A stretch of 64,000 bases of DNA from Synergistaceae bacterium (GCA_018436725.1 JAHDKT010000026.1:1-64000), one strand, 5' to 3'. Positions 12,154 to 63,811 are shown, numbered from the stretch's first letter. Translations and numbers: made by a program. The notes: generated by a model from the letters alone, not told the origin.

Positions 12154-12184
12154 AGGTATCCTCTCCTTTCAGATGTCGGACGTG

Positions 12185-12790: not shown

Positions 12791-12821
12791 CGCCTCCTTT
12801 GCGCTGCCTGAATGTATGTCG

Positions 12822-14252: not shown

Positions 14253-14313
14253 TTGTCAAACCTCCCCTTTTTCCACAATGCTAGGAACACACGTTTTGTT
14301 CACCGCTCTCCGA

Positions 14314-15513: not shown

Positions 15514-15551
15514 CGGATCAAGCCTCCTTTCTTCAGAGAAGGGGACGCGCC

Positions 15552-16358: not shown

Positions 16359-16375
16359 CACATACACTCCCTTCT

Positions 16376-17182
16376 TTACGGCAGCATTTTCGAGTCGCCC
16401 ACGTTGAGCCTGGCGGTTCCCTTCACCATCTTCGCGCCCGTATACTGTACGACCGGCAGTCCGGCCAGCTCTCCGACGATCCTGCACTGGAGCGGATGCT
16501 GCTCGTAGGTGAGCGGCGTCCAGCGGATCGATCCCTCGCCCGTCCACACCCGCCGGACCACCATCTCCTGCGGATAGAGCGTCGCATGGCTCAGCGTCGC
16601 GCCCCCCTTGCCGAGGTTGGGCAGGTATCGCCAACCGAAGAAATTCACCTTCGGATTTTTGTTGACCTCGGCGATCTGCTCTTCGTCGAGTTCTCCCTGT
16701 CGTGTAAGTTCGAGGGAGAGGAACGTGTTGCTCTCGTAGCTCGCGGACGTGAACCAGCGCTCGCCTACGCGGCGTTCCGAGGCGATGTCCGCGAAGATCT
16801 TCGGCATGCCGTCTTCCTCGCGCCCGCCGATGATCGGGCACGCCTTGTTCTCCCAGATGACCAGCACGTACTCGCCGACGAGCCCTTCGGAATTTCCTTC
16901 GTACCGGACCGGAACGCTCGCTTGAATCAAGCGATACTCGCCCCCGGCCATCCAGTCGACATCGCGGCAGTTGGCGTACTGCACGTTCACCATCGGTTCG
17001 AGCATCTCGAAATCCCGGGGGATGAAGCGCAGCAGCGCGTCCGCCTCCGTCCGGAACGAAACGCAGATGCACGTCATGTCGCCGTAGACCGTCCGCACCG
17101 GGTAGAACGGGTCGCCTCCGAAATGCACCGGCATCTTGTAGACGTAGTTTTCGTTGAACCTGAACAGGCCTCGCATTCCCAC
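16376..17182 (-). CDS. acetoacetate decarboxylase-family (ADC-like) protein
   Basis: 268 aa. Size and beta-rich sequence pattern are consistent with the ADC family. Weak assignment made from memory of the family. Confidence 0.4.
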   Translation of the reverse strand: MGMRGLFRFNENYVYKMPVHFGGDPFYPVRTVYGDMTCICVSFRTEADALLRFIPRDFEMLEPMVNVQYANCRDVDWMAGGEYRLIQASVPVRYEGNSEGLVGEYVLVIWENKACPIIGGREEDGMPKIFADIASERRVGERWFTSASYESNTFLSLELTRQGELDEEQIAEVNKNPKVNFFGWRYLPNLGKGGATLSHATLYPQEMVVRRVWTGEGSIRWTPLTYEQHPLQCRIVGELAGLPVVQYTGAKMVKGTARLNVGDSKMLP

Positions 17183-48758: not shown

Positions 48759-48789
48759 ACGCACCACCCCTTTTTTCTTCCGAACATAG

Positions 48790-49045
48790 AAAAAAGGAGG
48801 AGACCGCCGGAATACGGTCCCCTCCTTCCGCAAGTACAGGCTTCCGGAAAAAGCGAAAAGACCGCCTCTCACCCGCGTGATCGACGAAAAAACAGGCTTT
48901 CGGCAGGTCTTCCGACTCTCGGTCATCCTACTCCCGCGTCTTCCCGCCCGAGGGCAGTGACGTCGTGCGGTTTCGTCCCGATTACGGCGGCGGGGCCGTT
49001 CCGGTTTCGCACCGGATTCCCTTCTCCGAAATCCTTCGATATTCG
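48790..49045 (-). ncRNA. cobalamin (B12) riboswitch with terminator expression platform, leader of btuB
   Basis: Minus-strand leader reads AGGGAATCCGGTGCGAAACCGGAACGGCCCCGCC...CGTCACTGCCCTCGGGCGGGAAG...GGAAGACCTGCCG. These parallel the E. coli btuB leader blocks (AGGGAATCCAGTGCGAATCTGG...ACACTGCCATTCGGTGGGAAG...GAAGACCTGCCG) and the B12-box. A ggagg(g)gaccg/cggtctcctcc hairpin plus TTTTTT follows at 48790-48830. Confidence 0.7.
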
Positions 49046-49089
49046 GTTGCGTTTCGCCGGGCTGCACGCTTTCCCCGGCCGTCCGGCGG

Positions 49090-49842
49090 TCAACGCAGAC
49101 GAAAAACAATGCTCGCCCGAGCGCGTATCTCTCCCGGAGCATCGAACGTCCAGAGCTTCGCCGCGTTCACCGCCGCCTCGTCCAGCCTGGAGAATCCGCT
49201 GCTCGTCGAAACCGCGACATCCACAGTCCGCCCCGAACGTATGGTCAGCAACAGATGCACAACGCCCTCTTCTTTTCGCCTTCGCGAGAAGAGAGGATAT
49301 TCCGGAGCGGTTCTCGACAGAATCCGGAGCGTCTCCACATCCACGGGCTCCCCGCGCACGCCCCCCGTCGTGGAGATCGCGCCCGCTCCGCTCCGCGCTT
49401 CCGTCTTCGTCCCGGCCGCCGTTTCGGAGGAGAGCGCGTCCGCTCCCGGACGGGGGGCGCCGGAGAGAGGCTCGTCAAGCGTTTTCTTCGGCTGCGCGCG
49501 CGGAGGTTGCTCCGGCTCGCTCTTCGCCTTCGGCGCGGCGGCTTTTTTCGCCCCGCCGCTCCGTGCGGGCTTCTTCTCCGATTTCGAAGGGAGAACGGCG
49601 GCCGGCTGCTCCTTTTGCGTCGTCTTCTCCTCTTTCTTCACCGGACGAACACTCTCGGGCGCTGGATCAGCCTTCGGGATCGGGAGCGCTTCCGCGGAAC
49701 CTTCCGAAATACGCGGAGCTCCATGGAGCACGACGCGGAACACTTCCGGCGGGTCCGCGTGCTCGACGTCGACCCCCGGCAACAGAAAGAGGAGCGAGTG
49801 GAGCGCGAGACTTACGCTCAGAGCGGCGATCCACCTTCTCAT
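49090..49842 (-). CDS. tonB: energy transducer TonB
   Basis: N-terminal TM anchor, Pro/Lys/Glu-rich spacer, C-terminal TonB domain (RILSRTAPEYPLFSRRRKEEGVVHLLLTI...). Start overlaps the exbD stop. Confidence 0.7.
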   Translation of the reverse strand: MRRWIAALSVSLALHSLLFLLPGVDVEHADPPEVFRVVLHGAPRISEGSAEALPIPKADPAPESVRPVKKEEKTTQKEQPAAVLPSKSEKKPARSGGAKKAAAPKAKSEPEQPPRAQPKKTLDEPLSGAPRPGADALSSETAAGTKTEARSGAGAISTTGGVRGEPVDVETLRILSRTAPEYPLFSRRRKEEGVVHLLLTIRSGRTVDVAVSTSSGFSRLDEAAVNAAKLWTFDAPGEIRARASIVFRLR

Positions 49843-50225
49843 CGAGCGCCGTCTCCTTGCAGGGCGAGCCCCGTCGAAACGATCCCCTCGCGTCGAAGCA
49901 CGTCCAGCACCTCCGCGACCACGCCGTACGGCGCTTCGCGATCTCCCGCCAACAGAATATCCCGCCGCGCCGCCGCGGCCGCCGCCGCGAGAGGAGCGAG
50001 CTCTTCCATTCGCGTCTCCCTGTCGCCCCAGAGCACGCTCCCGTCCTTCCTCACCGTGAGCAGAAGGGCGTTCTCCTCCGTTTTTGCAACGGCTTCGCCG
50101 ACCGGAAGATCCACCTCGATGCGCCCCTGAAGAAAGTTCGCGGTCAGGACGAAGAAGATGATCAGCATGAAGAGCACGTCGATCAGCGGCGTGATATCAA
50201 GCTCCGGCCGACGACGGCGTCTCAT
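49839..50225 (-). CDS. exbD: biopolymer transport protein ExbD/TolR
   Basis: 128 aa. Single TM (ITPLIDVLFMLIIFFVL), then a periplasmic domain. Confidence 0.8.
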   Translation of the reverse strand: MRRRRRPELDITPLIDVLFMLIIFFVLTANFLQGRIEVDLPVGEAVAKTEENALLLTVRKDGSVLWGDRETRMEELAPLAAAAAAARRDILLAGDREAPYGVVAEVLDVLRREGIVSTGLALQGDGAR

Positions 50226-50860
50226 GGCGCGCCCTTCCCTCGGAGGCCGGCGTTCGCCGGAGCCGGGAAACGCTCCCGGATCAAAAAGTCCGCGCCCCTC
50301 CTGAGACACTCCTCCTGGGAGTCGACGCGGCTGGACAGAAAGCCGTGGAGGAAGAGCGCGGGAATGGCGACGGAGAGCCCCGCGACGGTCGTAAAGAGCG
50401 CCTTCCAGATTCCGCCCGTCACCGCCGTAGCGGTGATCCGCCCTCCGGAATGCAGCCCGGCGAACATCTCCATCATGCCGAGCACCGTGCCCAGCAGCCC
50501 CAGAAGCGGCGCGATCCTCCCCGTCATCTCCAGAAAGAGCAGGCGCTTCTCCCACCGGTAGACCTCGCGGCGAACCTCCTGCTCCACCAGCACGCCCATC
50601 CCCTCGCGGTCGACGTCCCAGTGGGTCAGCGCGGCCTGAAAGATACGGTGCAGCGAGCTGTTCGAAGCGAAGACGACTCCGCGGGCGTCCTCCGCTCTCC
50701 CCGATGCGCACGCGGCCGCGAACTCCGCCTCCAGTCGCTCGGGGTTCGTTGAAGCCCGCCGGAAGAAAAGCAGCCGCTCCACGATCACGGCGACCGCCGC
50801 CACGGAGAGAGCGGCCAGCACCCACATCAAAAAACCTCCGGCCTCGAAGTACGACAGCAT
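50222..50860 (-). CDS. exbB: MotA/TolQ/ExbB proton channel
   Basis: Start at MLSYFEAGG preceded by GGAGG (alternative ATG at 50875). Three TM helices with the conserved TxxxGLxGTVxGM motif. Confidence 0.8.
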   Translation of the reverse strand: MLSYFEAGGFLMWVLAALSVAAVAVIVERLLFFRRASTNPERLEAEFAAACASGRAEDARGVVFASNSSLHRIFQAALTHWDVDREGMGVLVEQEVRREVYRWEKRLLFLEMTGRIAPLLGLLGTVLGMMEMFAGLHSGGRITATAVTGGIWKALFTTVAGLSVAIPALFLHGFLSSRVDSQEECLRRGADFLIRERFPAPANAGLRGKGAP

Positions 50861-50883
50861 GGTCCCCACCTCCATTGCGTTCT

Positions 50884-51861
50884 CTACCTTCTCTTCCTCA
50901 GCAGCAGCCAGAGGAAGAAAAACGATCCGATGCTCGACGTGAGCGCGCCCACCGGAATCTCCGCCGGCGCCCAGAGCGTCCGGGCGGCGGTGTCGCACAG
51001 CACGAGAAAACCTCCTCCGAAGAGCAGCGAGGCTCCGCACAGCCGGGAGTGGTCCGACCCCACCAGAGATCGGCAGATATGAGGAACCATGAGCCCGACG
51101 AATCCGATAGGGCCGCAGAGGGCCACGTTCACGCCGACGGCCAGCGAAACCGCCAGAAAGAGCAGACGCCGCATCCTCTCCGCGGGAACGCCTCTGCTCA
51201 AGGCGAGTTCCTCGCCGCAGACGAAAAGATTCAACTCCCGCGAGCACAGGCGCGCCGTGCAGAATATCAGGAGCAGTCCGGGCAGAGCCGCGCGCACCGA
51301 GTCGAACCCCGCGGTCTGGATGCCCCCCATCGACCACCGCATGATTCTGAAGGTGTCGACGTATCCGCCGCCGTACTGCACGATCATGTTCAGGCTGCCG
51401 AAGAGAAAGCTGATCGCGATTCCCGCCAGCAGCAGCGTTCCCTCCGACATCCCCCCTCCGCGCAGCGTGCCCGCGGCGTAGATGACGGCCGTCGCGAGCA
51501 TCGCTCCCAGAAACGCGGATGTGGAAAGGGCCGAGAACAGTCCGAAGACGGTGAAGGAGAAGCCGAAGCGTATGGAGAGCACCGCGCCGAACGCCGCTCC
51601 CGTGGACACGCCCAGCATATCGGGAGAAGCCAGATCGTTGCGGAAGAGCGCCTGAAACACCATGCCGCAGAGGGAGAGCGTCGCTCCGGTGATCCACCCA
51701 AGGAGCACCCGCGGAAGGCGCAGCTCCCAGAAGATGCGCCCGCCGTTGCCGCCGCTCCGCAAAATGTCTTCCCAAGAGACGGAGTGCATCCCGACGAACG
51801 GAGCGACGGCGACGCAGAGCAGCGAGAAGAGCAGAACGGCGGGCAAAGCGAAGCGCTTCAT
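50884..51861 (-). CDS. btuC: FecCD/BtuC-family ABC permease (cobalamin/iron-chelate type)
   Basis: About 325 aa, 10 TM helices. Overlaps the upstream ATPase gene by 4 nt. Confidence 0.85.
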   Translation of the reverse strand: MKRFALPAVLLFSLLCVAVAPFVGMHSVSWEDILRSGGNGGRIFWELRLPRVLLGWITGATLSLCGMVFQALFRNDLASPDMLGVSTGAAFGAVLSIRFGFSFTVFGLFSALSTSAFLGAMLATAVIYAAGTLRGGGMSEGTLLLAGIAISFLFGSLNMIVQYGGGYVDTFRIMRWSMGGIQTAGFDSVRAALPGLLLIFCTARLCSRELNLFVCGEELALSRGVPAERMRRLLFLAVSLAVGVNVALCGPIGFVGLMVPHICRSLVGSDHSRLCGASLLFGGGFLVLCDTAARTLWAPAEIPVGALTSSIGSFFFLWLLLRKRR

Positions 51862-52646
51862 AACACCAGACCTCGCGGGGCGACGTACGGAACGCGCACC
51901 CCGTCTCCGCCGAAGGAGTGAAACTCGGTGTCGAAGATCTCGCGGAGCAGTCCGGCGTCCAAAAAGTCGTCCGTCGCGCCATCCCGGAGAACTCCGCCCC
52001 CTTTCAACGCGAGCACCCTGTCCGCGCTCCGCAGCGCCAGGTTGATATCGTGCGTCACCATGAGCACCGTGATTCCCCTCTCGCGATTGACGCGCTCCAC
52101 AAGAGCGGTCATCTCCACCTGACAGCGGTAGTCCAGAAACGACGTCGGTTCGTCCAGAAAAAGCATATCCGTCGTCTGCACGAGCGCCGCGGCAAGCAGC
52201 GCCTTTTGTCGTTCGCCGCCGCTCAGCAGATGCACGGGGCGATCCTGCAGCCCCTCCAGCTCCGTCAGACGGAAGGCGTTGGCGAGGATTTCGCGGTCGT
52301 CGACGCTCTCTCCGGAAAACGCCGACTTCCACGGATAACGCGAAAGAAGCAGAAACTCCCGCACCGTGAACGGAAGCGAATCGGTCCCCGACTGGGGGAT
52401 CCACGCGATGCGTCTGGCGATCCGACGCCGGGAGAGCCCCTCCATCGGACGCCCTTCGAGCAGCACCGTTCCCGACGATGGGCGCCGCAACCCGCCGAGA
52501 CACTTGAGAAGACTGGTCTTCCCCGCCCCGTTGGGACCCACGATCGCAAGAAACTCGCCTCGCCGCACCGAGAACGAAACCCCGTCGAGAGTTCGCGTCC
52601 CTCCAAGAACGAGGCCGAGAGCGCGGGCCTCCAGAAGAGGCGTCAT
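51858..52646 (-). CDS. btuD: ABC transporter ATP-binding protein (BtuD/FecE-like)
   Basis: Walker A GPNGAGKTS, signature LSGGERQ, Walker B LFLDEPT, H-loop. Confidence 0.85.
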   Translation of the reverse strand: MTPLLEARALGLVLGGTRTLDGVSFSVRRGEFLAIVGPNGAGKTSLLKCLGGLRRPSSGTVLLEGRPMEGLSRRRIARRIAWIPQSGTDSLPFTVREFLLLSRYPWKSAFSGESVDDREILANAFRLTELEGLQDRPVHLLSGGERQKALLAAALVQTTDMLFLDEPTSFLDYRCQVEMTALVERVNRERGITVLMVTHDINLALRSADRVLALKGGGVLRDGATDDFLDAGLLREIFDTEFHSFGGDGVRVPYVAPRGLVL

Positions 52647-53563
52647 GGAATCCACTCGATCTCCGGATGAAGAATTTCCGCGAAGGCGCGCAGAATCCGC
52701 CCTATTCTCGGCCCCGGACGGAGAAAGAGCGTCCCTTCCAGAATATGCACCCGCCCCTCCGTTACCGCGGGAACCTTCGCGCTCTCCGTCCACTGCCGCA
52801 CAAGACGCTCTCGGTCGAAAACATATTCGGCGTCGACCGGCTCCATCGAGTGGTAGAAGTTCCTGTCGCCGATCAAATCGACGATCACCTCCGGATTCAG
52901 CGAGAACAACCCTTCGACGGAGAGCAGCGGATAGTCCGCGCCGCCCGGCCCCACCGCGTTCGCGCCGCCCGCGAGTTCGATCAGCTCGTTGTAGAACGTA
53001 GCTCTCCCGGCCGCGTAAAAAGAGGTGATACGCGGCTCCGAAAGCTCCCTGGAAACGGCGAGCAACACCCGGGGACGGCTCGCCGTCGCGGCGACCTTCT
53101 CCGCGAGAGCGGCGATCTCCGCGCGCATCTTCCCGATCAACGCCGCGGCCGCCGCCTCTTCGCCGCACGCGCGGCCCAGCGCCTCGACCGAGAGAAGCAC
53201 CTCCTCCACCGAATTCTGCTTCAGCAGCACGTACGGAATCCCCAACCGCTCGATCTGCGGAAGGAACTGGAGATGAAGATCCTGAAAGACGATCAGGTCC
53301 GTTTCCGCGGCGAGAAGAGCTTCGAGATTGAGCGCGGCGAATCCTCCCAACCGCGGCTTCGTTCGCGCCTCCGGAGGCGTGTCGCAGAAATCGGTGACGC
53401 CGACGAGCCGATCTCCCAGTCCCAATGCGAAAAGGAACTCCGTCCCCACCGGAGAGAGCGACACGATCCGACGCAGCGCCCCCGACAGGGACGTCGCGAA
53501 AAAGAACACGAAAAGCAGCGCAAGGAGCGCTCCTCCCGTTCGAACTTTAAACCACGCTCGCAT
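52643..53563 (-). CDS. btuF: periplasmic substrate-binding protein, class III (BtuF-like cobalamin binding)
   Basis: Signal peptide. Two-lobed class III SBP pattern (IVSLSPVGTEFLFALGLGDRLVGVTDF...). RBS GGGGGAGG. First gene of the operon under the second riboswitch. Confidence 0.75.
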   Translation of the reverse strand: MRAWFKVRTGGALLALLFVFFFATSLSGALRRIVSLSPVGTEFLFALGLGDRLVGVTDFCDTPPEARTKPRLGGFAALNLEALLAAETDLIVFQDLHLQFLPQIERLGIPYVLLKQNSVEEVLLSVEALGRACGEEAAAAALIGKMRAEIAALAEKVAATASRPRVLLAVSRELSEPRITSFYAAGRATFYNELIELAGGANAVGPGGADYPLLSVEGLFSLNPEVIVDLIGDRNFYHSMEPVDAEYVFDRERLVRQWTESAKVPAVTEGRVHILEGTLFLRPGPRIGRILRAFAEILHPEIEWIP

Positions 53564-53584
53564 CACGGCATTCCTCCCCCAAAA

Positions 53585-53775
53585 AAAGAGGAGACCGCAC
53601 GGGCCTCCTCGAATAAACACCAACCTACAGGGTGATACATGCCCGCGCACAACACCCGTGCGCTCTCCGTGATTTTCTGGCTTCCGAAAAAATTTTCGGT
53701 TACAGTGGCGGGGCCGCTCCGGACTTGCACCGGATTACTCCGCGGAGAACGCGTATTCAATTGCATTGAATTCTA
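53585..53775 (-). ncRNA. second cobalamin riboswitch with terminator, leader of btuFDC-exbBD-tonB
   Basis: Minus-strand leader contains AATCCGGTGCAAGTCCGGAGCGGCCCCGCCACTGTAACCG....CGGAAGCCAG (B12 box GCCACTG). A gaggaggcc...cggtctcctc hairpin plus TTTTTTT lies just before the RBS. Confidence 0.65.
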
Positions 53776-53949
53776 GGCCTTCTTACTTCGCGCGTCAACT
53801 GCGAAGAAGACCACGCGGTCGAAAAACAGAAAGGAGCGGTGCTCTTTTCTGTCGAATTTTCACCTAAAGCCGCCGATGATTCTCGGTCGTTTCGACTTGA
53901 AATATGCTACGATAGAAAACAAAACCACGCCGAGGAAGGATCATTCCCG

Positions 53950-55476
53950 ATGAGCAAAAAGCACCTCACGAACGGAAACGGAGCTTCAGTCGGCCTCGAT
54001 ATCGCGTCGCTTTCGGGGCATCTCTGGGAGTCCGCCAACATCCTGCGCGGCGCGGTGGACGCAGCCGACTTCAAGACGTACATCTTTCCGCTGCTCTTCT
54101 TCAAACGCATTTCGGACGTCTTCGACGAAGAGTACGCCGCCGCCATGGAGAAATCCGGCGGCGACGAGGAGTTCGCCGGGTTTCCCGAAAACTACCGCTT
54201 CCAGGTGCCGGAGGGGTGTCACTGGAAGGATGTCCGCGCCCGGAGCGAGAATATCGGGCACGCCCTGCAAAAAGCCATGCGCTGCATCGAGCAGGCCAAC
54301 CCCGAGACGCTGCACGGCATCTTCGGCGACGCCCAATGGACGAACAAAGAGCGCCTCCCCGACCCCCTTCTCAAGGATCTGATCGAGCACTTCTCCTCCC
54401 TCGACATGGGAAACGTCCGCTGCAGGGCCGACGTTCTCGGGCAGGCCTACGAATACCTGATCAAGAAGTTCGCCGACCTCGCCAACAAAAAGGCCGGAGA
54501 ATTCTACACCCCCCGCCCCGTCGTCTCTCTGATGGTGCGCATCCTCTCGCCGGAAGCGGGGGAAACCGTCTACGACCCCGCGTGCGGAACCGGCGGAATG
54601 CTTCTCGAAGCGCTGCACCACGTCAAGGAACGCGGCGGCGACGAAAACCTCATGCTGGGCAAGCTCTACGGGCAGGAGAAGAACCTGACCACCAGCGCCA
54701 TCGCGCGGATGAACCTCTTTCTTCACGGCGCGGAGGACTTCCATATCGCCCGCGGCGACACCCTCAGAAATCCGGCGTTCTACTCCGGAGACAGCCTCGC
54801 CGCCTTCGACTGCGTCATCGCCAATCCTCCCTTCTCCCTCGAAAAATGGGGAGAGGACGTCTGGATCAACGACCCGTACGGGCGCAACTTCGCGGGGCTT
54901 CCACCCGCCTCCACAGGAGACTTCGCATGGGTGCAGCACATGATCAAGTCCATGGCCCTCAAGAGCGGCCGCATGGCCGTCGTCCTTCCTCACGGCGTCC
55001 TCTTCCGCATGTCCAGAGAAGGAGCCATCCGGCGCGCGCTGCTGGAAATGGACCTTCTCGACGCCGTGATCGGCCTCGGACAGAACATCTTCTACGGAAC
55101 CGGGCTCGCCCCCTGCATCCTGGTCTTCCGCCACAGAAAGAAAGAAGAGCGCCGAGGCAGGGTGCTCTTCATCGACGCCTCCAAGGAGTACAAGACGGGC
55201 CGGGCCCAGAACGAACTGCTGCCCGAGCACGTCGAAAACATTCACCGCCTGTACGAGGAGTATCGGGATGTCGAAGGGCTCTGCCGGGTTGCCGAACTCG
55301 CCGAAATCCGCGAGAGCGACTTCAACCTGAACATCCCCCGCTACGTGGAGCCGCTGATCGAAGAGGAGACCGTCACTCTCGAGGAGGCCGTCGCCGGTCT
55401 CAAGGAGTCCCTTGCCGCCGCGTACGCCGCCGAGGACCGTCTGAAAGAGCTGCTGACCATGGAGGGAATGCTGTGA
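53950..55476 (+). CDS. hsdM: Type I restriction-modification DNA methyltransferase subunit M (copy 1)
   Basis: 508 aa. N-terminal HsdM N domain. AdoMet motif (DPACGTGGML). Catalytic NPPF. C-terminal helical HsdM tail. Confidence 0.9.
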   Translation: MSKKHLTNGNGASVGLDIASLSGHLWESANILRGAVDAADFKTYIFPLLFFKRISDVFDEEYAAAMEKSGGDEEFAGFPENYRFQVPEGCHWKDVRARSENIGHALQKAMRCIEQANPETLHGIFGDAQWTNKERLPDPLLKDLIEHFSSLDMGNVRCRADVLGQAYEYLIKKFADLANKKAGEFYTPRPVVSLMVRILSPEAGETVYDPACGTGGMLLEALHHVKERGGDENLMLGKLYGQEKNLTTSAIARMNLFLHGAEDFHIARGDTLRNPAFYSGDSLAAFDCVIANPPFSLEKWGEDVWINDPYGRNFAGLPPASTGDFAWVQHMIKSMALKSGRMAVVLPHGVLFRMSREGAIRRALLEMDLLDAVIGLGQNIFYGTGLAPCILVFRHRKKEERRGRVLFIDASKEYKTGRAQNELLPEHVENIHRLYEEYRDVEGLCRVAELAEIRESDFNLNIPRYVEPLIEEETVTLEEAVAGLKESLAAAYAAEDRLKELLTMEGML

Positions 55477-57014
55477 AGAAGAGCCGACCCATCACGCACG
55501 CCGAACTCGAATCCTACCTCTGGGGAGCGGCCGTACTGCTGCGCGGCTATATCGACGCGGGCGACTACAAGCAGTTCATCTTCCCGCTGCTCTTCTACAA
55601 GAGGCTGTGCGACGTCTACGACGAAGAGCTGGCCGAAGCGCTGGAGACGTCCGGCGGCGACATCGAGTACGCCTCGCTTCCGGAGCAGCACCGCTTCCAG
55701 ATCCCCGAAGGCGCGCACTGGAACGACGTCCGCACCGAGGTCCGCAACGTCTGAAAGGCTATTCAGAACGCTCTCCGCGCCATCGAAAAAGCGAACCCGG
55801 ACACGCTCTTCGGGGTCTTCGGCGACGCCCAATGGACCAACAAGGACCGCCTTCCGGACCACATGCTCCGCGAACTGATCGAGCACTTCAGCTCCCGGAC
55901 GCTCTCCATCGCCAACTGCCCCGAGGACGAACTCGGCACAGGGTACGAATTCCTGATCAAGAAGTTCGCCGACGACTCCGGACACACCGCAGCGGAGTTC
56001 TACACCAACCGCACCGTGGTCCACCTGATGACCGAGATGCTCGAACCGCTCTCCGGAGAATCCATCTACGACCCCACCTGCGGATCGGCCGGAATGCTCC
56101 TCTCGGCCGTCGCGTACCTTAAGCGCCGGCGGAAGGAGTGGCGGAACCTGCGCCTCTTCGGCCAGGAGAAGAACCTCCTGACCTCCGCCATCGGCAGAAT
56201 GAACCTCTTCCTGCACGGCGTCAAGGACTTCAGCGTCGTTCGGGGCGACACCCTGACGAACCCCGCCTTCGTCGAGGGCGACCGACTCATGCGGTTCGAC
56301 GTGGTGCTCGCCAATCCGCCCTACTCCATCAAACAGTGGGACCGCGACGCATGGAGCGCCGATCCGTGGGGGCGGAACATCTACGGCGCCCCGCCGCAGG
56401 GGCGCGCCGACTACGCCTTCTGGCAGCATATCGTCCGGAGCATGAAGCCCGACACCGGCCGCTGCGCCATCCTCTTTCCGCACGGCGTGCTCTTCCGCGA
56501 CGAAGAAGCCGCCATGCGCGAAAAGCTGATCGACCACGACGTGCTGGAGTGCGTGCTCGGCCTCGGGCCGAACCTCTTCTACAACTCCCCCATGGAGGCC
56601 TGCGTCGTGATCTGCCGCATGAACAAACCGCCGGAGCGAAGAGGCAGGGTCCTCTTCATCAACGCGGTGAACGAAGTCGCCCGCGAACGAGCGCAGAGCT
56701 TCCTGAGCGAAGAGCACATCGAAAAGATCGTCGAGGCCTACCGGACGTACGAGAATCGCGAGGGGTTCGCCCGCGTGGCCGAAAACGGCGAGATTCGGGC
56801 CAACGGCGGCAAACTCAGCCTTCCGCTCTATGTGCGAGGCGCCGACGGAAACGGCAACGGAGCGGGCGAACGCGTCGGCCTCAAGCAGTCGATAGCGGAG
56901 TGGCTGGAAAGCTCCGCCGCCCTGCGGGAGTCGATGGACGAGCTTTTCGCTCTGCTTGAAGAGCAGACGCGACCGGACGACGGCGAATTTGCGAAAGGAG
57001 GACGTCTGCGATGA
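55473..57014 (+). pseudogene. hsdM: Type I R-M methyltransferase subunit M paralog (copy 2) with in-frame TGA at 55752-55754
   Basis: GTG start overlapping the hsdM1 stop, preceded by GGAGGG. About 50% identical to copy 1 along its full length (DPTCGSAGML, NPPYS). A single TGA replaces the Gly aligned to hsdM1 ...SENIGHALQKA (VRNV*KAIQNALRA). Confidence 0.65.
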
Positions 57015-58186
57015 GCGCGCGATCCCTGAAGCCCGGCTGGAGGATGGTCACGTTCGGGGATGTCGTGAAGAACGTGAACATGGTCGAGCGCGATCCCGTA
57101 TCCAAAGGTATCGAGCGGATCGTCGGACTGGAGCACATCGACCCGGAGAATCTGCATATTCGGCGATGGAGTTCCGTTGAAGAGGGAACGTCCTTTACTC
57201 GTAAATTCGTCCCCGGCCAGACTCTTTTCGGGAAGCGGCGCGCCTATCAGCGGAAAGTCGCCTTTGCCGAGTTCGAAGGCATCTGCTCCGGCGATATTCT
57301 GACCTTCGAACCGAAGAGCACGGACGCGCTGCTGCCAGAACTGCTGCCTTTCATATGTCAGACCGACGCCTTCTTCGAGCACGCGCTCAACACCTCGGCG
57401 GGTTCTCTTTCTCCAAGGACCAGTTGGTCGGCGTTGCAGGGCTTCCAATTCCCGCTGCCGCCGCTCGATGAGCAGAAGCGCATCGCCGAAATCCTGTGGG
57501 CGGCGGATGAGGCGGTGGAAGCGTATACCATTGCCTACAATAAGCTTGTCAAGTTGTCCGAGGCGATTGTTGAGTGCGATATTTGTTCAATGTTGTACCC
57601 TTGGCAGCCACTTGGCTCTGTATTAACGGCCATTCTGGCTGGGAAAAGTGTTGTTGGAAGCACTATGCCAGCTAAGCCTAATGAATACGGTGTCCTTAAA
57701 GTTAGCGCTGTTGGGGCAACAGGATTTAAACCTGATGAGAACAAACGCCTTCTTAGATCTGAAGATTTTTTACACCGATATAGAATTAATAATGGCGCCC
57801 TGTTAATAACTAGATGTAATACAACTGCTCTTGTGGGTAGAGTTTGCATTGTGCAAAGCGACTTTCATCACTTGATGTTATGCGATAAAACGTTACAACT
57901 TATTCTAGATGAAAATATAGTTAATATTCGGTTTGTTTATGAAGCTTTGCGTTCTCATCGTGTAAGAACTCAAATTGCTGGACTTGCCACTGGCACAGGT
58001 GGCGCTATGAAAAATCTTTCTCAACAAGATCTTCGTTCACTTTTAATTCCATTGCCATCCAAAGAAAGTCAAAATATAGCCATACACAAAGTTTCTCAAA
58101 TCGCGAAGCAAAAAGATATTATCTCCGGATGGATCGCTAGATTGGTTGATTTGAAAAAGCAGGTTACGAGGACGCTAATATGCTGA
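57011..58186 (+). CDS. hsdS: Type I R-M specificity subunit S
   Basis: 391 aa. Two target-recognition domains separated by a conserved central helix (PPLDEQKRIAEIL). Start overlaps the hsdM2 stop. Sharp GC drop after about 57540 (TRD2). Confidence 0.85.
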   Translation: MSARSLKPGWRMVTFGDVVKNVNMVERDPVSKGIERIVGLEHIDPENLHIRRWSSVEEGTSFTRKFVPGQTLFGKRRAYQRKVAFAEFEGICSGDILTFEPKSTDALLPELLPFICQTDAFFEHALNTSAGSLSPRTSWSALQGFQFPLPPLDEQKRIAEILWAADEAVEAYTIAYNKLVKLSEAIVECDICSMLYPWQPLGSVLTAILAGKSVVGSTMPAKPNEYGVLKVSAVGATGFKPDENKRLLRSEDFLHRYRINNGALLITRCNTTALVGRVCIVQSDFHHLMLCDKTLQLILDENIVNIRFVYEALRSHRVRTQIAGLATGTGGAMKNLSQQDLRSLLIPLPSKESQNIAIHKVSQIAKQKDIISGWIARLVDLKKQVTRTLIC

Positions 58187-58289
58187 TATAAAATGATTTC
58201 TTAATAATTCTACATTTTATTGTTTTTTTAATTTTTTGCTTAAATCAAAGCGTGGTTGCTGGATATTTTATATACAGGGAGGTTCTCAA

Positions 58290-60866
58290 ATGGCGTTTAA
58301 AATCCCCGCAAAGCTACTAGTGTCCATCGCAGACCCGGAATCGTTGTTCCGTGACCTGAGGGATCGGGCGGTAGAAGGCCTTCTTGCTCAGCAGGCAGAC
58401 ATGCTTCGAAAATACATGGAGCATGTTGATGCGCATGATATTGCGCTTGAGCTACCTACCGGCAGCGGGAAAACCTTAGTTGGTCTTCTTATAGCAGAAT
58501 GGCGCAGAAGAACAAGGCAGGAAAGATGTCTACTACTTTCCCCAACTAAACAACTCGTCCATCAGATCTTCGAACAGGCCAAAGGGAAGTATGGAATTAA
58601 TACACTCGATTTTTCCGGCTCCAAGCATAACTACACAGCACCCGATAAATCCGCATTTAAAAACTGTGAAGCTATAGGCATTGCCACATATAGCGCCTTT
58701 TTCAACACAAATACTTTTTTTAGTGATGCTCATACGCTTATTTTTGATGATGCACACGCTGCTGAGACTTATGTGTCAAACTTGTGGTCTTTGGAAATAC
58801 ATCGTTCTAAAGATGAAATGATATTTAACGCTATCTGGAAAATAATCGAGCCCTATACAACAGAAAACGAGCAACTCTGTTATGACCAAGACACTGATGG
58901 GGGGATTGATACTTCGTTTGTCAATAAGATTCCCACTCCTTATTTTCTAGAATGCAAGACCGCGCTGGCGATTGTATTGAATGATGCGTCCAGAAGAGGT
59001 GAAAAATATGAGGAGTACAGCTACCGATGGCTTATGATTAAAGACCACCTTCATGCATGTCACCTCTATTACACCAGTAATTCAATTCTTATTCGTCCTC
59101 TTATACCACCTACAAAGAGCTTTAAGCCTTTCCTAGATGCGAATCAGCGCATTTATATGTCAGCCACTCTCGGGGAAGGTGGAGATCTTGAACGAATATT
59201 CGGCCGGAAAACAATTACACGGATTCCCGCCCCAGATGGATGGGACAAGCAGGGAATCGGCAGGCGTTTTTTTGTCTTTCCTATGCGAAAATGGGATGAT
59301 AAAGATTCATTAAATTTTGCACTTTCTTGGATCTCTAAATTTGATAGAGTTCTTGTGCTTACTCAAAGCAATCGAGATGCAGAGATAGTAAAGCAGTCTA
59401 TTAAACAAATCGAAGCTCTAAAGAATCATTCGATTTTCGATGCTACGGAACTGGAGCTATCTAAGAAGATTTTCACTCAGAAGGACTCCGCTATCGCGAT
59501 TTTGGCGAATAGGTATGACGGAATCGATCTAATCGGAGACGAATGTAGATACTTGATAGTCTATGGCCTTCCAGAATCAACAAATCTCCAAGAACGTTTT
59601 ATCATCAGTCGATTAGGGGCATCTGTTCTTTTTGATGTACGCATCCGTACTAGAATAACCCAAGCTGTAGGACGATGCACCCGCTCATCAAGTGATTATG
59701 CGCTTGTAGTGGTCATTGGCGAGAAAGCGAATCAATATTTTCACATGCCAGAAAAAAGAGCGGTTTTGCATCCGGAACTTCAAGCAGAAGTAAATTTTGG
59801 CATTGAGCAGTCAATAGTTGGAGATGTCTGTGAACTAGAGGATAATATTAATTCATTTATCATGCATGATTCTGAGTGGAAATCCGCTGATAATTATATA
59901 TTAGAAACAAGAGACAAATTAAAACAATTACCGATATCTTCAGCAAGCCAGCTTGGGAAAGCAGTCGTTAGTGAAGTTGCATTTAATGATGCGCTTTGGT
60001 TTGGGAAGTTTGACGTTGCTCTCTCATCAGCAAAAGATGTGCTTGCCTGCCTTGCAGGTGGACATGAACTGAAGGGCTATTCCGCTCTCTGGAATTACCT
60101 CGCAGGTTCCGCAGCGTATCAAGAAGAGGAAAAGGATATAGCAAAGGAGCATTTCTCTGCGGCGTTTTCATGTGTTAGCACATTGCCATGGCTTAGGCAA
60201 ATTCAGAAGTTGACTTCTAACCGATTGCCACAAACACCAATGATTATTATGCATGAAGCACGTATTGAGCGCATAGAGCACATACTTGAAAAGTTTGGAA
60301 AAATAAATAGTGTTAAAATAGAGAGGTATTTTAACTCAATCAGAGATGGGCTTTCAAGCACTCAATCACAACCTTTTGAAGAAGCTCAAGTTAAAATTGG
60401 ACTGCTTTTAGGGTTTATAGCTGGAAAAACCGAAAATTCAGGCGATCCAGATCCATGGTGGATAATAGGTAAAGAAGGCATTGTTTTTGAAGACTACACT
60501 GCAACGGGAGAGAAGCCAATTATTTCTAAAGAGAAAACATTGCAAGCAAAGGCCCATCCTGATACCCTTAAAAAAACGCATCCTCATGTAAATTTCAGCG
60601 TTGTATTATGCTCTACATCAAGGACATTACATTATGCCGCAGAACCTCATACAGAAGGCGTTTATTTCATTCATAAAGATGAGTTTTGTGAGTTCTCTGA
60701 ACAATGTTTTAAGCTCATCCGTAGTCTTTGGGATACATTTCAATCATCTGGAAATATGCGTTGGCGAGAGGATGCCGCGGAAAAAATACATTCAGCCGGA
60801 TTAGAAAACGAAGACATCTTGTCATTTTTGAGAAATACACAGCTTGCTTCATTAGTGAAAGGTTAA
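58290..60866 (+). CDS. SF2 (Rad3/DinG/DEAH-like motifs) helicase-family protein with about 390-aa C-terminal domain of unknown function, embedded in the Type I R-M operon
   Basis: Start at MAFKIP with GGGAGG RBS. Walker A LPTGSGKT (about aa 55). Motif II FDDAH (about aa 165). Motif III MSATL (about aa 313). Motif VI QAVGRCTRS (about aa 483). The C-terminal half has no recognisable family. About 40% GC versus about 65% for hsdM and hsdR. Confidence 0.65.
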   Translation: MAFKIPAKLLVSIADPESLFRDLRDRAVEGLLAQQADMLRKYMEHVDAHDIALELPTGSGKTLVGLLIAEWRRRTRQERCLLLSPTKQLVHQIFEQAKGKYGINTLDFSGSKHNYTAPDKSAFKNCEAIGIATYSAFFNTNTFFSDAHTLIFDDAHAAETYVSNLWSLEIHRSKDEMIFNAIWKIIEPYTTENEQLCYDQDTDGGIDTSFVNKIPTPYFLECKTALAIVLNDASRRGEKYEEYSYRWLMIKDHLHACHLYYTSNSILIRPLIPPTKSFKPFLDANQRIYMSATLGEGGDLERIFGRKTITRIPAPDGWDKQGIGRRFFVFPMRKWDDKDSLNFALSWISKFDRVLVLTQSNRDAEIVKQSIKQIEALKNHSIFDATELELSKKIFTQKDSAIAILANRYDGIDLIGDECRYLIVYGLPESTNLQERFIISRLGASVLFDVRIRTRITQAVGRCTRSSSDYALVVVIGEKANQYFHMPEKRAVLHPELQAEVNFGIEQSIVGDVCELEDNINSFIMHDSEWKSADNYILETRDKLKQLPISSASQLGKAVVSEVAFNDALWFGKFDVALSSAKDVLACLAGGHELKGYSALWNYLAGSAAYQEEEKDIAKEHFSAAFSCVSTLPWLRQIQKLTSNRLPQTPMIIMHEARIERIEHILEKFGKINSVKIERYFNSIRDGLSSTQSQPFEEAQVKIGLLLGFIAGKTENSGDPDPWWIIGKEGIVFEDYTATGEKPIISKEKTLQAKAHPDTLKKTHPHVNFSVVLCSTSRTLHYAAEPHTEGVYFIHKDEFCEFSEQCFKLIRSLWDTFQSSGNMRWREDAAEKIHSAGLENEDILSFLRNTQLASLVKG

Positions 60867-60877
60867 TAGGGCCGCCC

Positions 60878-63811
60878 ATGTTTAACGAAGAAAACACCGT
60901 CGAGCAGTTGATTCTCGATGCGCTTCGCGGCGGAGCGTCTTACAGCAGAGTCGCGGGGCGGAGCGGCGGCTCGGGAGAGTGGCGCTTCATCCCCTCCGAC
61001 GAGCTGCGGCGCTCCTCCTCCGACGTGCTGGTGGAGCCGATGCTCTACGATGCCCTCCTTCGCCTCAACCCGGAGATCGAAGCGCAGCCGAATCGCGCGG
61101 ACGAGGTGCTCTACCGATTGCGCGCCATTCCCCTTTCGGTGCAAAGCGAGGGGCTTGTCCGCTCCAACGAGCTGTTTGCGGAGTGGCTCCGCGGCGAGAA
61201 GTCCATGCCCTTCGGCGAACGCGGCGAACATACCCCCGTCCGCCTGATCGACTTCGAAGACCTCTCCAACAACGAGTACGTGGTCACGAATCAGTGGGTC
61301 TATCCCGTCAAGGAAGGGGGAAAGCGCTTCGACATCGTCCTTCTGGTCAACGGAATACCGCTCGTGATCGGCGAGGCGAAGACGCCGGTGCGCCCCGCCG
61401 TGACATGGATCGACGGCGCCTCCGACATCCACGACGCCTACGAAAAGAGCGTGCCGCAGATGTTCGTTCCCAATGTCTTTTCCTTCGCCACCGAGGGAAA
61501 GCGCTTCCGCTACGGCACGGTTCGGATGCCGCTCGATATCTGGGGCCCGTGGCACGACGGCGACAAGTCCGAGGGCAGCCTGGCGGACGTGCGGCGCTCC
61601 GCCCGTTCGATGCTCCGTCCTTCGGTCGTTCTGGACCTCCTGCGGAACTTCACGCTCTTCGCCACGGACAAAAGACACAGCCGCATCAAGATCATCGGCC
61701 GCTATCAGCAGTACGAGGCCGCCAACCTTATCGTCGAGCGCGTGGTCCGGGGCTCCCCGAAGAAGGGGCTGATCTGGCACTTTCAAGGTTCGGGGAAGTC
61801 GCTCCTGATGGTCTTCGCGGCGCAGAAGCTGCGGATGCACCGCGAGCTGGGCAACCCCACGGTGATGATCGTGGTGGACAGGATCGACCTCGACACCCAG
61901 ATCACCGCCACCTTCAACGCCGCCGACATTCCGAACATGATCGGAGCCTCCGCCCGGAACGAGCTTCACGACCTGCTGGCCGCGGACACGCGCAAGATCA
62001 TCATCACCACCATTCACAAGTTCGCCGAGACGGGCGGACGGCTGAACGAGCGTTCGAACATCATCGTGATGGTGGACGAGGCGCACCGCACCCAGGAGGG
62101 CGACCTCGGACGCAGGATGCGCGAGGCCCTCCCCAACGCCTTTCTCTTCGGCCTGACCGGAACGCCGATCAACAAGCGGGACAGGAACACCTTCTGGGCA
62201 TTCGGCGCGGAGGAGGACGAACAGGGGTACATGAGCCGCTACTCCTTTCAGGACTCCATCCGGGACAAGGCCACGCTCCCGCTGCATTTCGAGGCGGTGG
62301 ACGTCAAGCTGCACATCGACAGGGTAGCCATCGACGAAGCCTACGCACGCATGACCGACCAACTGAGCGAAGAAGACCGCGACGACCTCGCGAAGCGCGC
62401 CGCGAAGATGGCGGTGCTCATCAAGGCCCCGGAACGGGTGAACGCGATCTGCCGGCATATCGTCGGACACTTCGCGGAGAAGGTGGAGCCGAACGGCTTC
62501 AAGGCGCAGGTGGTCACGTTCGACCGGGAGTGCTGCGTGCTGTACAAGAGGGCGATGGACGAGCTGATCGGGCCGGACGCAAGCGCCGTCGTGATGAGCA
62601 CGCAGGGCGGCAAAGCCGATAATTACGCCGGGTGGAAGCTGGGGAAAGACGAGGAGGAGCGTCTTCTCGACCGCTTCCGCGATCCGAACGATCCGCTCAA
62701 GTTCCTGATCGTCACTTCCAAGCTGCTGACCGGGTTCGACGCCCCCATCCTGCAGACGATGTATCTGGACAAGCCGATGAAGGACCACAGTCTTCTGCAG
62801 GCCATCTGCCGGACGAACCGCGTCTACTCCGGCAAGACGCACGGCCTGATCGTGGATTACCTGGGCATCTTCGACGACGTGGCGAACGCCCTCGACTTCG
62901 ACGAAAAGTCCGTCCAGCGAGTTGTGACCAATCTCGAAGAGGTCAAGGCGGAACTTCCCGGAATCGTGGAGCGCTGCCTCGCCTTCTTCCCGGGAACGGA
63001 CCGTTCCGTCGGCGGGTACGAGGGGCTGATCGCCGCGCAGGACTGTCTGCCGAACAACGAAATCAAGGACAGGTTCGCCGCCGAATTCTCGGTGCTCTCC
63101 AGGCTCTGGGAGGCACTCTCCCCGGACCCCGTACTCGCTCCGTTCGAGAAGGACTACAAGTGGCTGACGCAAGTTTACGAATCGGTAAAGCCCCTGAGCG
63201 GCAAAGGCAAGCTGCTCTGGCACGCGCTCGGGGCCAAGACCATCGAACTGGCCCACAGGAACGTCCATCTGGAGACGGTGCGCGACGACCTCGAAACGCT
63301 TGTGATGGACGCGGATATTCTGGAGGAGTTCCTGAAGAACAAGAAGGGGAAGGAGAAAGAGATCGAGATCAAGCTCATCGCGCGGCTTCGGAAGCACAGG
63401 GGCAATCCGAAGTTCATCGCGCTCGGCGAGCGGCTCGAAAAGCTGAAGGAGCGGCACGAACAGGGACTGCTCAACAGCCTGGAGTTTTTGAAGGAGCTGC
63501 TCGCTCTGGCGAAGGAGGTCGTGCAGGCCGAGAAGGAAGTCGACCCCGTCGAGGAGCGGAAGGATGCCAAGGCCGCCCTCTCCGAACTGTTCGCCGAGGT
63601 GAAAAACGTGAACACCCCGGTGATGGTGGAGCGCATCGTGAACGACATCGACCAGATCGTGCGGGTGGTCCGCTTCCCTGGATGGCAGGACACCACCGAG
63701 GGAAAGCGCGAAATCCAGAAGGCTCTGCGCGAGCTGCTCTACGTCAAGTACAAGATCAAAGACGCGGACCTCTTCGAGAGGGCGTTCCAGTACATCAGGC
63801 AGTATTACTGA
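60878..63811 (+). CDS. hsdR: Type I R-M restriction subunit R (HsdR)
   Basis: Start at MFNEENTVEQ. N-terminal nuclease domain (DIVLLVNGIPLVIGEAK = PD-(D/E)xK). Walker A GSGKS, DEAH (VMVDEAHRTQ), helicase C motifs (TGFDAP...QAICRTNR). About 977 aa. Confidence 0.9.
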   Translation: MFNEENTVEQLILDALRGGASYSRVAGRSGGSGEWRFIPSDELRRSSSDVLVEPMLYDALLRLNPEIEAQPNRADEVLYRLRAIPLSVQSEGLVRSNELFAEWLRGEKSMPFGERGEHTPVRLIDFEDLSNNEYVVTNQWVYPVKEGGKRFDIVLLVNGIPLVIGEAKTPVRPAVTWIDGASDIHDAYEKSVPQMFVPNVFSFATEGKRFRYGTVRMPLDIWGPWHDGDKSEGSLADVRRSARSMLRPSVVLDLLRNFTLFATDKRHSRIKIIGRYQQYEAANLIVERVVRGSPKKGLIWHFQGSGKSLLMVFAAQKLRMHRELGNPTVMIVVDRIDLDTQITATFNAADIPNMIGASARNELHDLLAADTRKIIITTIHKFAETGGRLNERSNIIVMVDEAHRTQEGDLGRRMREALPNAFLFGLTGTPINKRDRNTFWAFGAEEDEQGYMSRYSFQDSIRDKATLPLHFEAVDVKLHIDRVAIDEAYARMTDQLSEEDRDDLAKRAAKMAVLIKAPERVNAICRHIVGHFAEKVEPNGFKAQVVTFDRECCVLYKRAMDELIGPDASAVVMSTQGGKADNYAGWKLGKDEEERLLDRFRDPNDPLKFLIVTSKLLTGFDAPILQTMYLDKPMKDHSLLQAICRTNRVYSGKTHGLIVDYLGIFDDVANALDFDEKSVQRVVTNLEEVKAELPGIVERCLAFFPGTDRSVGGYEGLIAAQDCLPNNEIKDRFAAEFSVLSRLWEALSPDPVLAPFEKDYKWLTQVYESVKPLSGKGKLLWHALGAKTIELAHRNVHLETVRDDLETLVMDADILEEFLKNKKGKEKEIEIKLIARLRKHRGNPKFIALGERLEKLKERHEQGLLNSLEFLKELLALAKEVVQAEKEVDPVEERKDAKAALSELFAEVKNVNTPVMVERIVNDIDQIVRVVRFPGWQDTTEGKREIQKALRELLYVKYKIKDADLFERAFQYIRQYY

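Follow-up and report, generated by a model that had tools for sequence, protein, structure and literature searches.

The gene between hsdS and hsdR

A gene that lies between hsdS and hsdR of a Type I restriction-modification (R-M) operon in a Synergistaceae bacterium quite probably encodes a divergent anti-phage enzyme of the Hna family, modelled in the PADLOC database as PDC-S28, and is carried as cargo of the R-M cassette. It was found in a stretch of 64,000 nucleotides (nt) (GCA_018436725.1 JAHDKT010000026.1:1-64000), referred to below as the window, and will be called the Hna-like gene. An earlier reading of this DNA, here the original prediction, had described a helicase of unknown family and had suggested either a new R-M-coupled defence system or a helicase-dependent regulator of restriction. 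That a defence-type gene had been inserted between hsdS and hsdR was borne out by the Hna-family match and, for the flanking genes, by Pfam. However, the family is not unknown and the system is not new, because the protein is a full-length homologue of the characterised Hna and PADLOC already models the family; we found no support for a helicase-dependent regulator of restriction. The founding paper on Hna is said to be that of Sather et al. in 2023.

When the PDB was searched with phmmer, the Hna-like protein gave one strong full-length match (E 1.9e-32), to the chain of 845 amino acids (aa) in entries 10UJ, 9YKJ and 9YHN. These are the cryo-electron microscopy structures of Sinorhizobium meliloti Hna (Hooper et al. 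2026, PMC13381803), which has been characterised as an abortive-infection system made up of one gene. BLASTP aligned the window protein to Hna across 762 aa (E 4e-39), and a profile of 40 homologues matched Hna with E 4e-65, residues 9-809 of the query pairing with 12-799 of Hna, so that the nuclease domain is covered. In PADLOC-DB v2.0.0, where PDC-S28 is the label of a single-gene phage defence candidate (PDC), both PDC-S28 models matched the Hna-like protein over residues 14-854, with E values of 5e-109 and 2e-107. The same two models were matched by S. meliloti Hna (E 1e-292 and 4e-116; the query comprised residues 12-799, rebuilt from the HMMER alignment), and PDC-S28 is therefore the Hna family. 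Since the match of the Hna-like protein to both hidden Markov models is full-length, PADLOC would already flag the window gene. The sampled relatives also match both models full-length. Still, PDC-S28 is a bioinformatic candidate label without a mechanism, and the clade of the window protein scores about 360 bits on it where Hna scores 971. Hachiman HamB, Cas3, PbeA and type IV CasDinG, to which PADLOC gave weak local matches in the helicase core (E 1e-5 to 1e-16), were rejected.

Relatives of the protein are numerous. A word-indexed search gave 4786, all of about 860 aa and annotated merely as 'DEAD/DEAH box helicase', and an exhaustive search of 50%-identity cluster representatives gave 727 at E <= 1e-30, from many phyla. 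Plasmid records that carry a relative number 169. A metagenome scan with the single protein as query returned no relative, and its repetition with an alignment of homologues returned some. Residues 525-858 are matched at 100% identity by P0241, a fragment in the public records. In place of 'DEAD/DEAH box helicase', the name in annotations should be Hna-family (PDC-S28) defence helicase-nuclease.

Predicted structure and active sites

An AlphaFold2 model made with a 40-sequence alignment was confident, with a predicted local distance difference test (pLDDT) score of 87 and a predicted template modelling (pTM) score of 0.86. The top three Foldseek matches of this model in the PDB were monomer and dimer chains of Hna, the best being 9yhn (E 8.5e-36, template modelling (TM) score 0.64/0.66 over the whole length). 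They were followed by DinG, XPD and CasDinG, which matched the helicase core alone, with E values of about 1e-12 and TM scores of about 0.35. Pfam recognised DEAD, ResIII and Helicase_C_2 (PF13307, residues 352-479), which agrees with the original prediction of a DinG-like N-terminal half and identifies this part as a DinG/XPD-like superfamily 2 (SF2) ATPase. The C-terminal 390 or so residues had been said to match nothing that could be named; in fact the nuclease region within them, at 60366..60866, aligns with the NUC domain of Hna. The architecture is thus that of Hna, namely a DinG/XPD-like SF2 ATPase without an iron-sulphur (Fe-S) cluster, joined by a helical linker to a PD-(D/E)xK nuclease at the C-terminus, and, like Hna with its HEL1, HEL2 and NUC domains, it is contained in one polypeptide of about 850 aa. 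A search of the protein for an Fe-S cysteine cluster found the cysteines scattered, with no 4-Cys cluster, which fits Hna's lack of an Fe-S domain. With DinG, XPD and CasDinG the window protein shares the fold of the helicase core and the Helicase_C_2 domain, but it lacks the Fe-S cluster, has only a reduced arch and bears an additional nuclease at the C-terminus. In the C-terminal region of the model, DSSP assigned helices at residues 693-706 and 747-763 and strands at 710-712, 723-726, 729-737 and 768-775.

The full set of SF2 motifs that had been noticed in the sequence (GSGKT, DDAH, SAT and QxxGRxxR) is present and is conserved in relatives. All counts of conservation given here refer to 152 relatives drawn from the 160 loci that were gathered, and where 153 sequences are mentioned Hna has been added to these. 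The SAT motif occupies residues 291-293, with S291-T293 invariant, and the invariant Q35 aligns to Hna Q39, the glutamine of the Q-motif. Walker A and B, this glutamine and, at the nuclease site, P-D and E are features that the window protein has in common with Hna. The remaining motifs are as follows, all on the plus strand.

58461..58475, plus strand: Walker A GSGKT, residues 58-62 (K61); G58, G60 and K61 invariant (152/152), T62 in 149/152
58746..58757, plus strand: motif II DDAH, residues 153-156; D153, D154 and H156 invariant (152/152)
59661..59684, plus strand: motif VI QAVGRCTR, residues 458-465, within Helicase_C_2; Q458, G461, R462 and R465 invariant
60366..60866, plus strand: nuclease region, aligned to the Hna NUC domain (alignment; DSSP on the AlphaFold2 model)
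60447..60452, plus strand: P720-D721, equivalent to Hna P712-D713, with the metal-binding Asp; conserved in 152/152 (profile alignment)
60489..60497, plus strand: E734-D735-Y736, equivalent to Hna E727-C728-K729, with Tyr at the canonical Lys position; E734 in 152/152
60534..60536, plus strand: K749, at the start of the helix after beta-3; Lys in 145/152

In Hna, P712, D713, E727 and K729 have been mutated, and K729A abolishes nuclease activity (PMC13381803). The position equivalent to K729 is a tyrosine in the window protein, and inspection of the alignment suggests where the lysine has gone. The original prediction had pointed, speculatively, to a PD-(D/E)xK-like signature near residue 700 that ended in EK. 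Its first part, GDPDPWW..IVFEDY, is indeed the core of the nuclease, D721 and E734 corresponding to Hna D713 and E727; its final EK (E741-K742) does not supply the conserved lysine, which is K749. Among the 152 relatives, residue 736 is H in 91, Y in 51, K in 7 and N in 3, and residue 749 is K in 145, H in 6 and D in 1. When the two positions are tabulated together (736/749), the combinations are Y/K in 51, H/K in 91, N/K in 3, K/H in 6, K/D in 1 and, in Hna itself, K/E in 1. Every one of the 153 sequences thus has lysine at either 736 or 749 and never at both; the counts come from related sequences, and the K/H group is probably a single lineage. The most likely interpretation of this covariation is that the catalytic lysine has moved from 736 to K749 and that the nuclease has not been lost. 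K749, on the helix that follows beta-3, would then stand in for the lysine of the ExK motif, which is K729 in Hna and Tyr or His here. A relocated catalytic lysine is a known variation among PD-(D/E)xK enzymes.

Several observations weigh against assignment of the gene to the Hna family as a defence enzyme. Identity to the characterised Hna is just 25%. On the PDC-S28 models, relatives that are 38-72% identical to the window protein, a sample that includes Stenotrophomonas, Pseudomonas, Lysinibacillus and a Phycisphaerae metagenome-assembled genome (MAG), score about 350-410 bits compared with 971 for Hna; these scores place the window protein in a large clade that is sister to Hna, and we know of no characterised member of this clade. 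The essential K729 of Hna is not kept in place (Y736), and it is on the basis of covariation and secondary structure that K749 appears to be its substitute. In the dimer loop of Hna, the identities of T30, D31 and P34 are not kept (V28, E29 and L31 in the window protein), and R36 is without a counterpart, falling inside an insertion specific to Hna. Within the clade, R26, V28 and G30 are invariant in the HEL1 loop at this position. Because the dimer-loop residues differ, ATP-dependent autoinhibition by dimerisation may differ as well. Finally, hsdM2 in the window contains a nonsense codon and the host operon may therefore be decaying.

The R-M operon and the boundaries of the insertion

The Hna-like ORF (open reading frame) is intact. 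It begins with ATG at 58290 and encodes 858 aa plus a stop codon, although the longest open frame of the same gene, 58236..60866 on the plus strand, is initiated by TTG and encodes 876 aa. The ATG is the likely start, because a GGGAGG sequence lies 7 nt 5' of it and because homologues begin with MAFK, in which M1 and F3 are invariant. The original prediction had given coordinates that match the ATG form, and its length of 876 aa is 18 codons more than those coordinates provide; the strong ribosome-binding site that it had noted does precede the ATG. The order hsdM1-hsdM2-hsdS-ORF-hsdR was confirmed for the flanking genes by Pfam. The features of the operon are listed here.

53950..55476, plus strand: hsdM1; the frame opens with GTG at 53839, the likely start being ATG at 53950; Pfam HsdM_N and N6_Mtase
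55473..57014, plus strand: hsdM2; Pfam N6_Mtase; one in-frame TGA at 55752-55754
57011..58186, plus strand: hsdS; Pfam Methylase_S; PADLOC Specificity_I over 1-389 of 392, E 7e-119
58187..58289, plus strand: AT-rich spacer of 103 nt from the hsdS stop to the Hna-like ATG (from reading the sequence)
58277..58282, plus strand: Shine-Dalgarno sequence GGGAGG, 7 nt 5' of the ATG (read off the sequence)
58290..60866, plus strand: Hna-like ORF
60867..60877, plus strand: hsdR-side junction TAGGGCCGCCC, 11 nt (aligned with loci L169 and L166)
60878..63811, plus strand: hsdR, 977 aa; Pfam HSDR_N, SWI2_SNF2 and T1R_D3-like

The tight spacing that had been ascribed to the operon holds for the 11 nt between the Hna-like stop codon and the hsdR ATG and for hsdM2 and hsdS, which overlap, but not for the 103-nt gap that follows hsdS. 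A promoter scan of this AT-rich segment gave only weak matches, a promoter-like one being at 58093-58122, and the spacer may hold an internal promoter. No terminator-like sites were found in a scan of the plus strand between hsdS, the Hna-like ORF and hsdR, and the Hna-like gene is probably co-transcribed with the R-M cassette.

The composition of the Hna-like ORF is foreign to the operon. Its GC content is 0.412 (0.35 at third codon positions, GC3), compared with 0.611 for hsdM1, 0.640 for hsdM2 and 0.621 for hsdR (GC3 0.80-0.86). The reported drop in GC is therefore large and real, although it amounts to 20-23 points and not to 25. The fall does not coincide with the start of the ORF. It begins within hsdS at about 57560, the 5' half of which, encoding the first target recognition domain (TRD1), has 58% GC and the 3' half (TRD2) 40%, and it stops no more than 11 nt from the hsdR ATG. 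Because the 3' half of hsdS shares the low GC beyond this breakpoint, we conclude that TRD2 arrived together with the Hna-like gene.

A contig that lacks the Hna-like gene (L169) fixes the right-hand boundary. It encodes an HsdR 98% identical to that of the window, the 3' end of its hsdS abuts hsdR, and its nucleotide identity to the window begins at GGCCGCC[A/C]ATG, about 8-10 nt before the hsdR start. The window insertion thus spans the interval from the middle of hsdS to just before hsdR, because it is there that identity to L169 resumes, and 60867..60877 is its right-hand boundary, since GGCCGCC[C/A]ATG is the native sequence of the hsdS/hsdR junction in L169 and in L166. It follows that the Hna-like gene was imported from a low-GC donor jointly with the spacer and with the TRD2 part of hsdS. 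Sister cassettes also have hsdS and the Hna-like gene below hsdM and hsdR in GC (0.48 versus 0.60 in L006), the window being the most extreme. The GC3 of hsdR is 0.86 in the window and 0.58-0.85 in the sister cassettes, and in every case the neighbouring hsdS and cargo have lower values.

The hsdM2 frame is open on both sides of the TGA at 55752-55754 (...VRNV*KAIQNAL...), and as called genes the hsdM2 of sister cassettes are apparently full-length, at 504-528 aa. The TGA could be a nonsense mutation that disables the R-M system, a sequencing error or a site of read-through.

The Hna-like gene as cargo of a two-hsdM cassette

The R-M scaffold is found well beyond the window. Homologues of the window HsdR are 82-98% identical to it in many taxa. 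An identity of about 82% is seen even in taxa very far apart, among them Oleidesulfovibrio alaskensis, Desulfomicrobium, Desulfarculus, Geobacter, Achromobacter and a Synergistaceae MAG, and the two-hsdM cassette looks unusually promiscuous and conserved. In its bare form (L166-168) it consists of HTH_17, hsdM1, a 75-aa ORF, hsdM2, hsdS and hsdR, with hsdS overlapping hsdR. Other versions carry different genes, between hsdM2 and hsdS: a 438-aa SLFN_AlbA_2 gene in L163-165 (L163 6523-7839, for example) and a 775-aa AAA_13 gene in L161/162 (5512-7839). The existence of an hsdR 98% identical to that of the window without the Hna-like gene, together with the presence elsewhere of other cargo or none, argues for the Hna-like gene being swappable cargo and not an integral partner of the R-M system. 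The cassettes of L004 and L005 have about 1.8-2.7 kb extra between hsdM2 and hsdS, besides the Hna-like gene.

As judged from called genes, the HTH_17 regulator opens the sister cassettes and the 75-aa ORF separates hsdM1 from hsdM2 in L161-L168. In L001 the regulator is present and the 75-aa ORF was not matched by tblastn. Neither was detected by tblastn in the window, where hsdM2 begins at the end of hsdM1.

Inspection of most sister cassettes reveals a junction unlike that of the window. In these, about 108 nt located 5' of the Hna-like Shine-Dalgarno sequence correspond almost exactly to the first 34 or so codons of the bare-cassette hsdR, and the working hsdR has a divergent 5' end, with an ATG that overlaps the Hna-like TGA (ATGA). 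This hsdR-5' remnant, which starts from the hsdR ATG, is found at 9860-10000 in L001 and in the same place in L006, L007, L081-L084, L086, L088, L096, L101 and L158. It looks like the scar of an insertion into hsdR and may also serve as a leader ORF. In L092, an insert of 2.7 kb that carries the Hna-like gene lies between the two copies (4056-4113 and 6771-6828) of a perfect 40-nt direct repeat, which comprises the hsdS/hsdR junction and the start of hsdR; this locus represents another Type I lineage, its HsdR being about 50% identical to that of the window and its Hna-like protein 79-85% identical to those of the L001-type loci. The window conforms to neither pattern. Its spacer (58187..58289) holds no hsdR-5' remnant, no duplication of the hsdR 5' end was found, and a search for direct repeats around the insertion gave just a chance-like match of 24 nt at 79%. 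Its Hna-like protein is also the outlier of the subclade, being about 71% identical to the rest, which share 79-93%. Junctions of at least three types, in two HsdR lineages, show that the subclade became associated with this site repeatedly.

The original prediction had asked whether homologues recur between hsdS and hsdR, and they do. Relatives of the window Hsd proteins were located by tblastn in the 160 loci. Within the close subclade (at least 62% identity), hsdR starts no more than 700 nt downstream in 20 of the 25 informative loci, that is, those with at least 0.8 kb of downstream flank. The hsdR product in these loci is usually 78-81% identical to that of the window, hsdS lies directly upstream and both hsdM genes lie further up, the order M1-M2-S-X-R being found in about 20 assemblies. 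Their sources are a Gammaproteobacteria MAG, Desulfobacula, Geopsychrobacteraceae, Malonomonas, Geomesophilobacter and many metagenomes. Among the 125 more distant relatives (less than 54% identity) the hsdS/hsdR placement was found in 0/125, and 15 have a related Type I gene within 8-10 kb. The exceptions in the close clade are still mostly found amid defence genes, as the following list shows.

L002: hsdS, then a DUF5655/NucS_C-like gene, the Hna-like gene and RhuM
L097: AbiEii upstream and hsdR downstream of the Hna-like gene
L098: a SIR2_2 gene downstream of the Hna-like gene
L090: a HepT/MNT pair upstream of the Hna-like gene
L008: the Hna-like gene is preceded by an RNase_T gene and followed by one DUF5655 and one PLD-helicase-DUF3427 gene
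L091 and L010: transporter genes upstream of the Hna-like gene

Alternative explanations

PrrC, like RloC, joins an ABC-ATPase-like N-domain to an anticodon-nuclease C-domain. Its target is tRNA-Lys, which it cleaves, and its latency depends on the R-M complex. By comparison with it, the Hna-like protein might be a guard coupled to the R-M system, either silenced by HsdMSR and freed by a phage anti-restriction protein or acting on ends or single-stranded DNA (ssDNA) that HsdR has made. We regard this as unlikely. The gene does occupy the position of prrC, between hsdS and hsdR, and we have noted that this placement is kept in 20/25 of the subclade loci and in none of the 125 distant relatives. 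At least three modes of entry led to the same junction, one marked by the hsdR-5' remnant (L001-type), one by the 40-nt repeat (L092) and one, in the window, by neither; two HsdR lineages that are about 50% identical were entered by genes whose products are still 79-85% identical; and the ATGA overlap of the Hna-like and hsdR genes in most cassettes suggests translational coupling. The conserved placement could, however, reflect no more than a recombination hotspot combined with co-inheritance, and other facts speak against a guard. The 98%-identical hsdR sits in a cassette without the gene, the same scaffold bears unrelated cargo or none, and members of the close clade are found away from detectable Type I genes (L090, L091, L010, L098 and L008). 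No PrrC or RloC model was present among the PADLOC, Pfam and NCBIfam matches of the Hna-like protein, and the characterised Hna acts alone (PMC13381803). It is similarly doubtful that the R-M-embedded subclade is a true Type I partner, with a DNA exonuclease effector translationally coupled to hsdR; if it were, the repeated entry at this junction would reflect selection for partnership and not a passive hotspot. On the same doubtful reading, the combination of Y/H736 and K749 could be the sign of a nuclease that differs in mechanism.

The remaining alternatives concern the activity of the protein and the reality of the insertion. Since K729A abolishes the nuclease of Hna and the aligned residue is a tyrosine, Y736 could have inactivated the enzyme, leaving only an ATPase or translocase, with a role such as sensing or the regulation of restriction. 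This is very unlikely, because D721 and E734 are invariant and D735, Q752 and H756 nearly so across 152 sequences from many phyla, and because lysine is never missing at both 736 and 749, which argues for a maintained site and not for decay. There is still less to recommend a housekeeping repair helicase of the DinG/YoaA type that does no more than adjoin the R-M genes, a reading we consider highly improbable even though Pfam shows generic helicase domains alone and the public annotation is 'DEAD/DEAH box helicase'. The protein has a nuclease domain and lacks an Fe-S cysteine cluster, DinG and XPD match only its core (TM about 0.35 compared with 0.64-0.66 for Hna), and the NCBIfam models for DinG and Rad3 score far under their cut-offs; further, the patchy taxonomy, the foreign composition, the 169 plasmid records and the defence-gene neighbours are not those of a housekeeping gene. 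As for an assembly chimera, in which a low-GC segment was mis-joined into a high-GC operon, the abrupt change in GC at both ends would be expected of one, but its probability is negligible. The junctions lie within or at the edge of intact genes, with hsdS full-length across the GC shift, the same gene order recurs in about 20 independent assemblies, related cassettes also have lower GC in hsdS and the Hna-like gene, and P0241 matches residues 525-858 perfectly.

Proposed mechanism and relation to known systems

Assignment of the gene to the Hna family as defence cargo suggests a mode of action. Hna is a Mg/Mn-dependent 3'-5' ssDNA exonuclease that is held off by ATP binding and for which phage single-stranded DNA-binding protein (SSB) is a known trigger (PMC13381803). 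The window protein is probably an abortive-infection ssDNA exonuclease of the same type. If it resembles Hna, it would be kept inactive in the uninfected cell in an ATP-bound form, probably a dimer. Once the cell is infected, a cue from the phage, for instance its SSB bound to ssDNA, would free the nuclease, which would then degrade DNA from 3' single-stranded ends, so that the infection aborts. In evolutionary terms, the gene and hsdS TRD2 came from a low-GC donor and landed at the hsdS/hsdR junction of a promiscuous two-hsdM cassette, where the Hna-like gene would add a second, abortive layer of defence behind restriction.

Comparison with Hna itself shows clear differences. The window protein is 25% identical and belongs to the sister clade, its lysine is relocated and its dimer-loop residues are changed; moreover its gene is embedded in a Type I operon, whereas Hna has been described as a lone single effector. 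The prr locus (PrrC/EcoprrI) and RloC share with the window gene the slot between hsdS and hsdR and the addition of an abortive-infection-type effector to restriction, but they have no homology to the window protein. DarTG2 also sits between hsdS and hsdR, a site that has been proposed as a hotspot (PMC12255303), and a 'guilt-by-embedding' screen in Type I R-M systems gave 145 PADLOC PDC candidates. Neither PDC-S28 nor Hna was found in the accessible parts of the Payne 2024 supplements, which do not confirm PDC-S28 as one of the 145. The Type I-embedded module described in bioRxiv 10.1101/2024.01.29.577857 resembles the window locus in its insertion site and in being an independent defence module inside the operon; its cargo is other, and the window cassette has two hsdM genes and no small helix-turn-helix (HTH) regulator. 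A literature search on Hna plus hsdR turned up no account of an Hna gene inside a Type I R-M operon.

Because Type I embedding and Hna are both established, the window gene is best described as a divergent Hna relative in a known kind of place, and current understanding is not overturned by it. The new elements are modest and consist of the relocated lysine, the constancy with which the subclade occupies the hsdS/hsdR junction, and the scars left by duplication of the hsdR 5' end. The sister clade, with its 727 clusters, keeps the nuclease site with a lysine that has probably moved and so offers a clean natural experiment on the structure and function of Hna. The subclade is nearly always at hsdS/hsdR, and the hsdR-5' duplications show how cargo enters Type I operons. 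The two-hsdM cassette, with at least two cargo slots, should be useful for finding further embedded defence genes.

Further observations

In the window the R-M cassette adjoins a group of minus-strand transport genes at 46779-53650, which encode a periplasmic binding protein, an ABC ATPase, ExbB, ExbD and a TonB-dependent receptor. A dip in GC at 53250-54000 marks the left edge of the cassette. Long plus-strand ORFs at 48171-53672, 5' of hsdM1, have no Pfam match and were set aside as probable shadow ORFs of the transport genes.

A NucS_C-like/DUF5655 gene of about 310 aa adjoins the Hna-like gene at three loci that are otherwise dissimilar (L002 2188-3126, L100 4305-5270 and L008 13318-14232) and may be a further embedded defence candidate or a partner. 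In L161/L162, the region 3' of hsdR (12093-17077) contains genes for a C5 DNA methylase and HATPase_c_3, an unannotated ORF and a Vsr endonuclease gene, followed by a transposase and an integrase; the region has the appearance of an additional module, for restriction or defence, carried by a mobile island.

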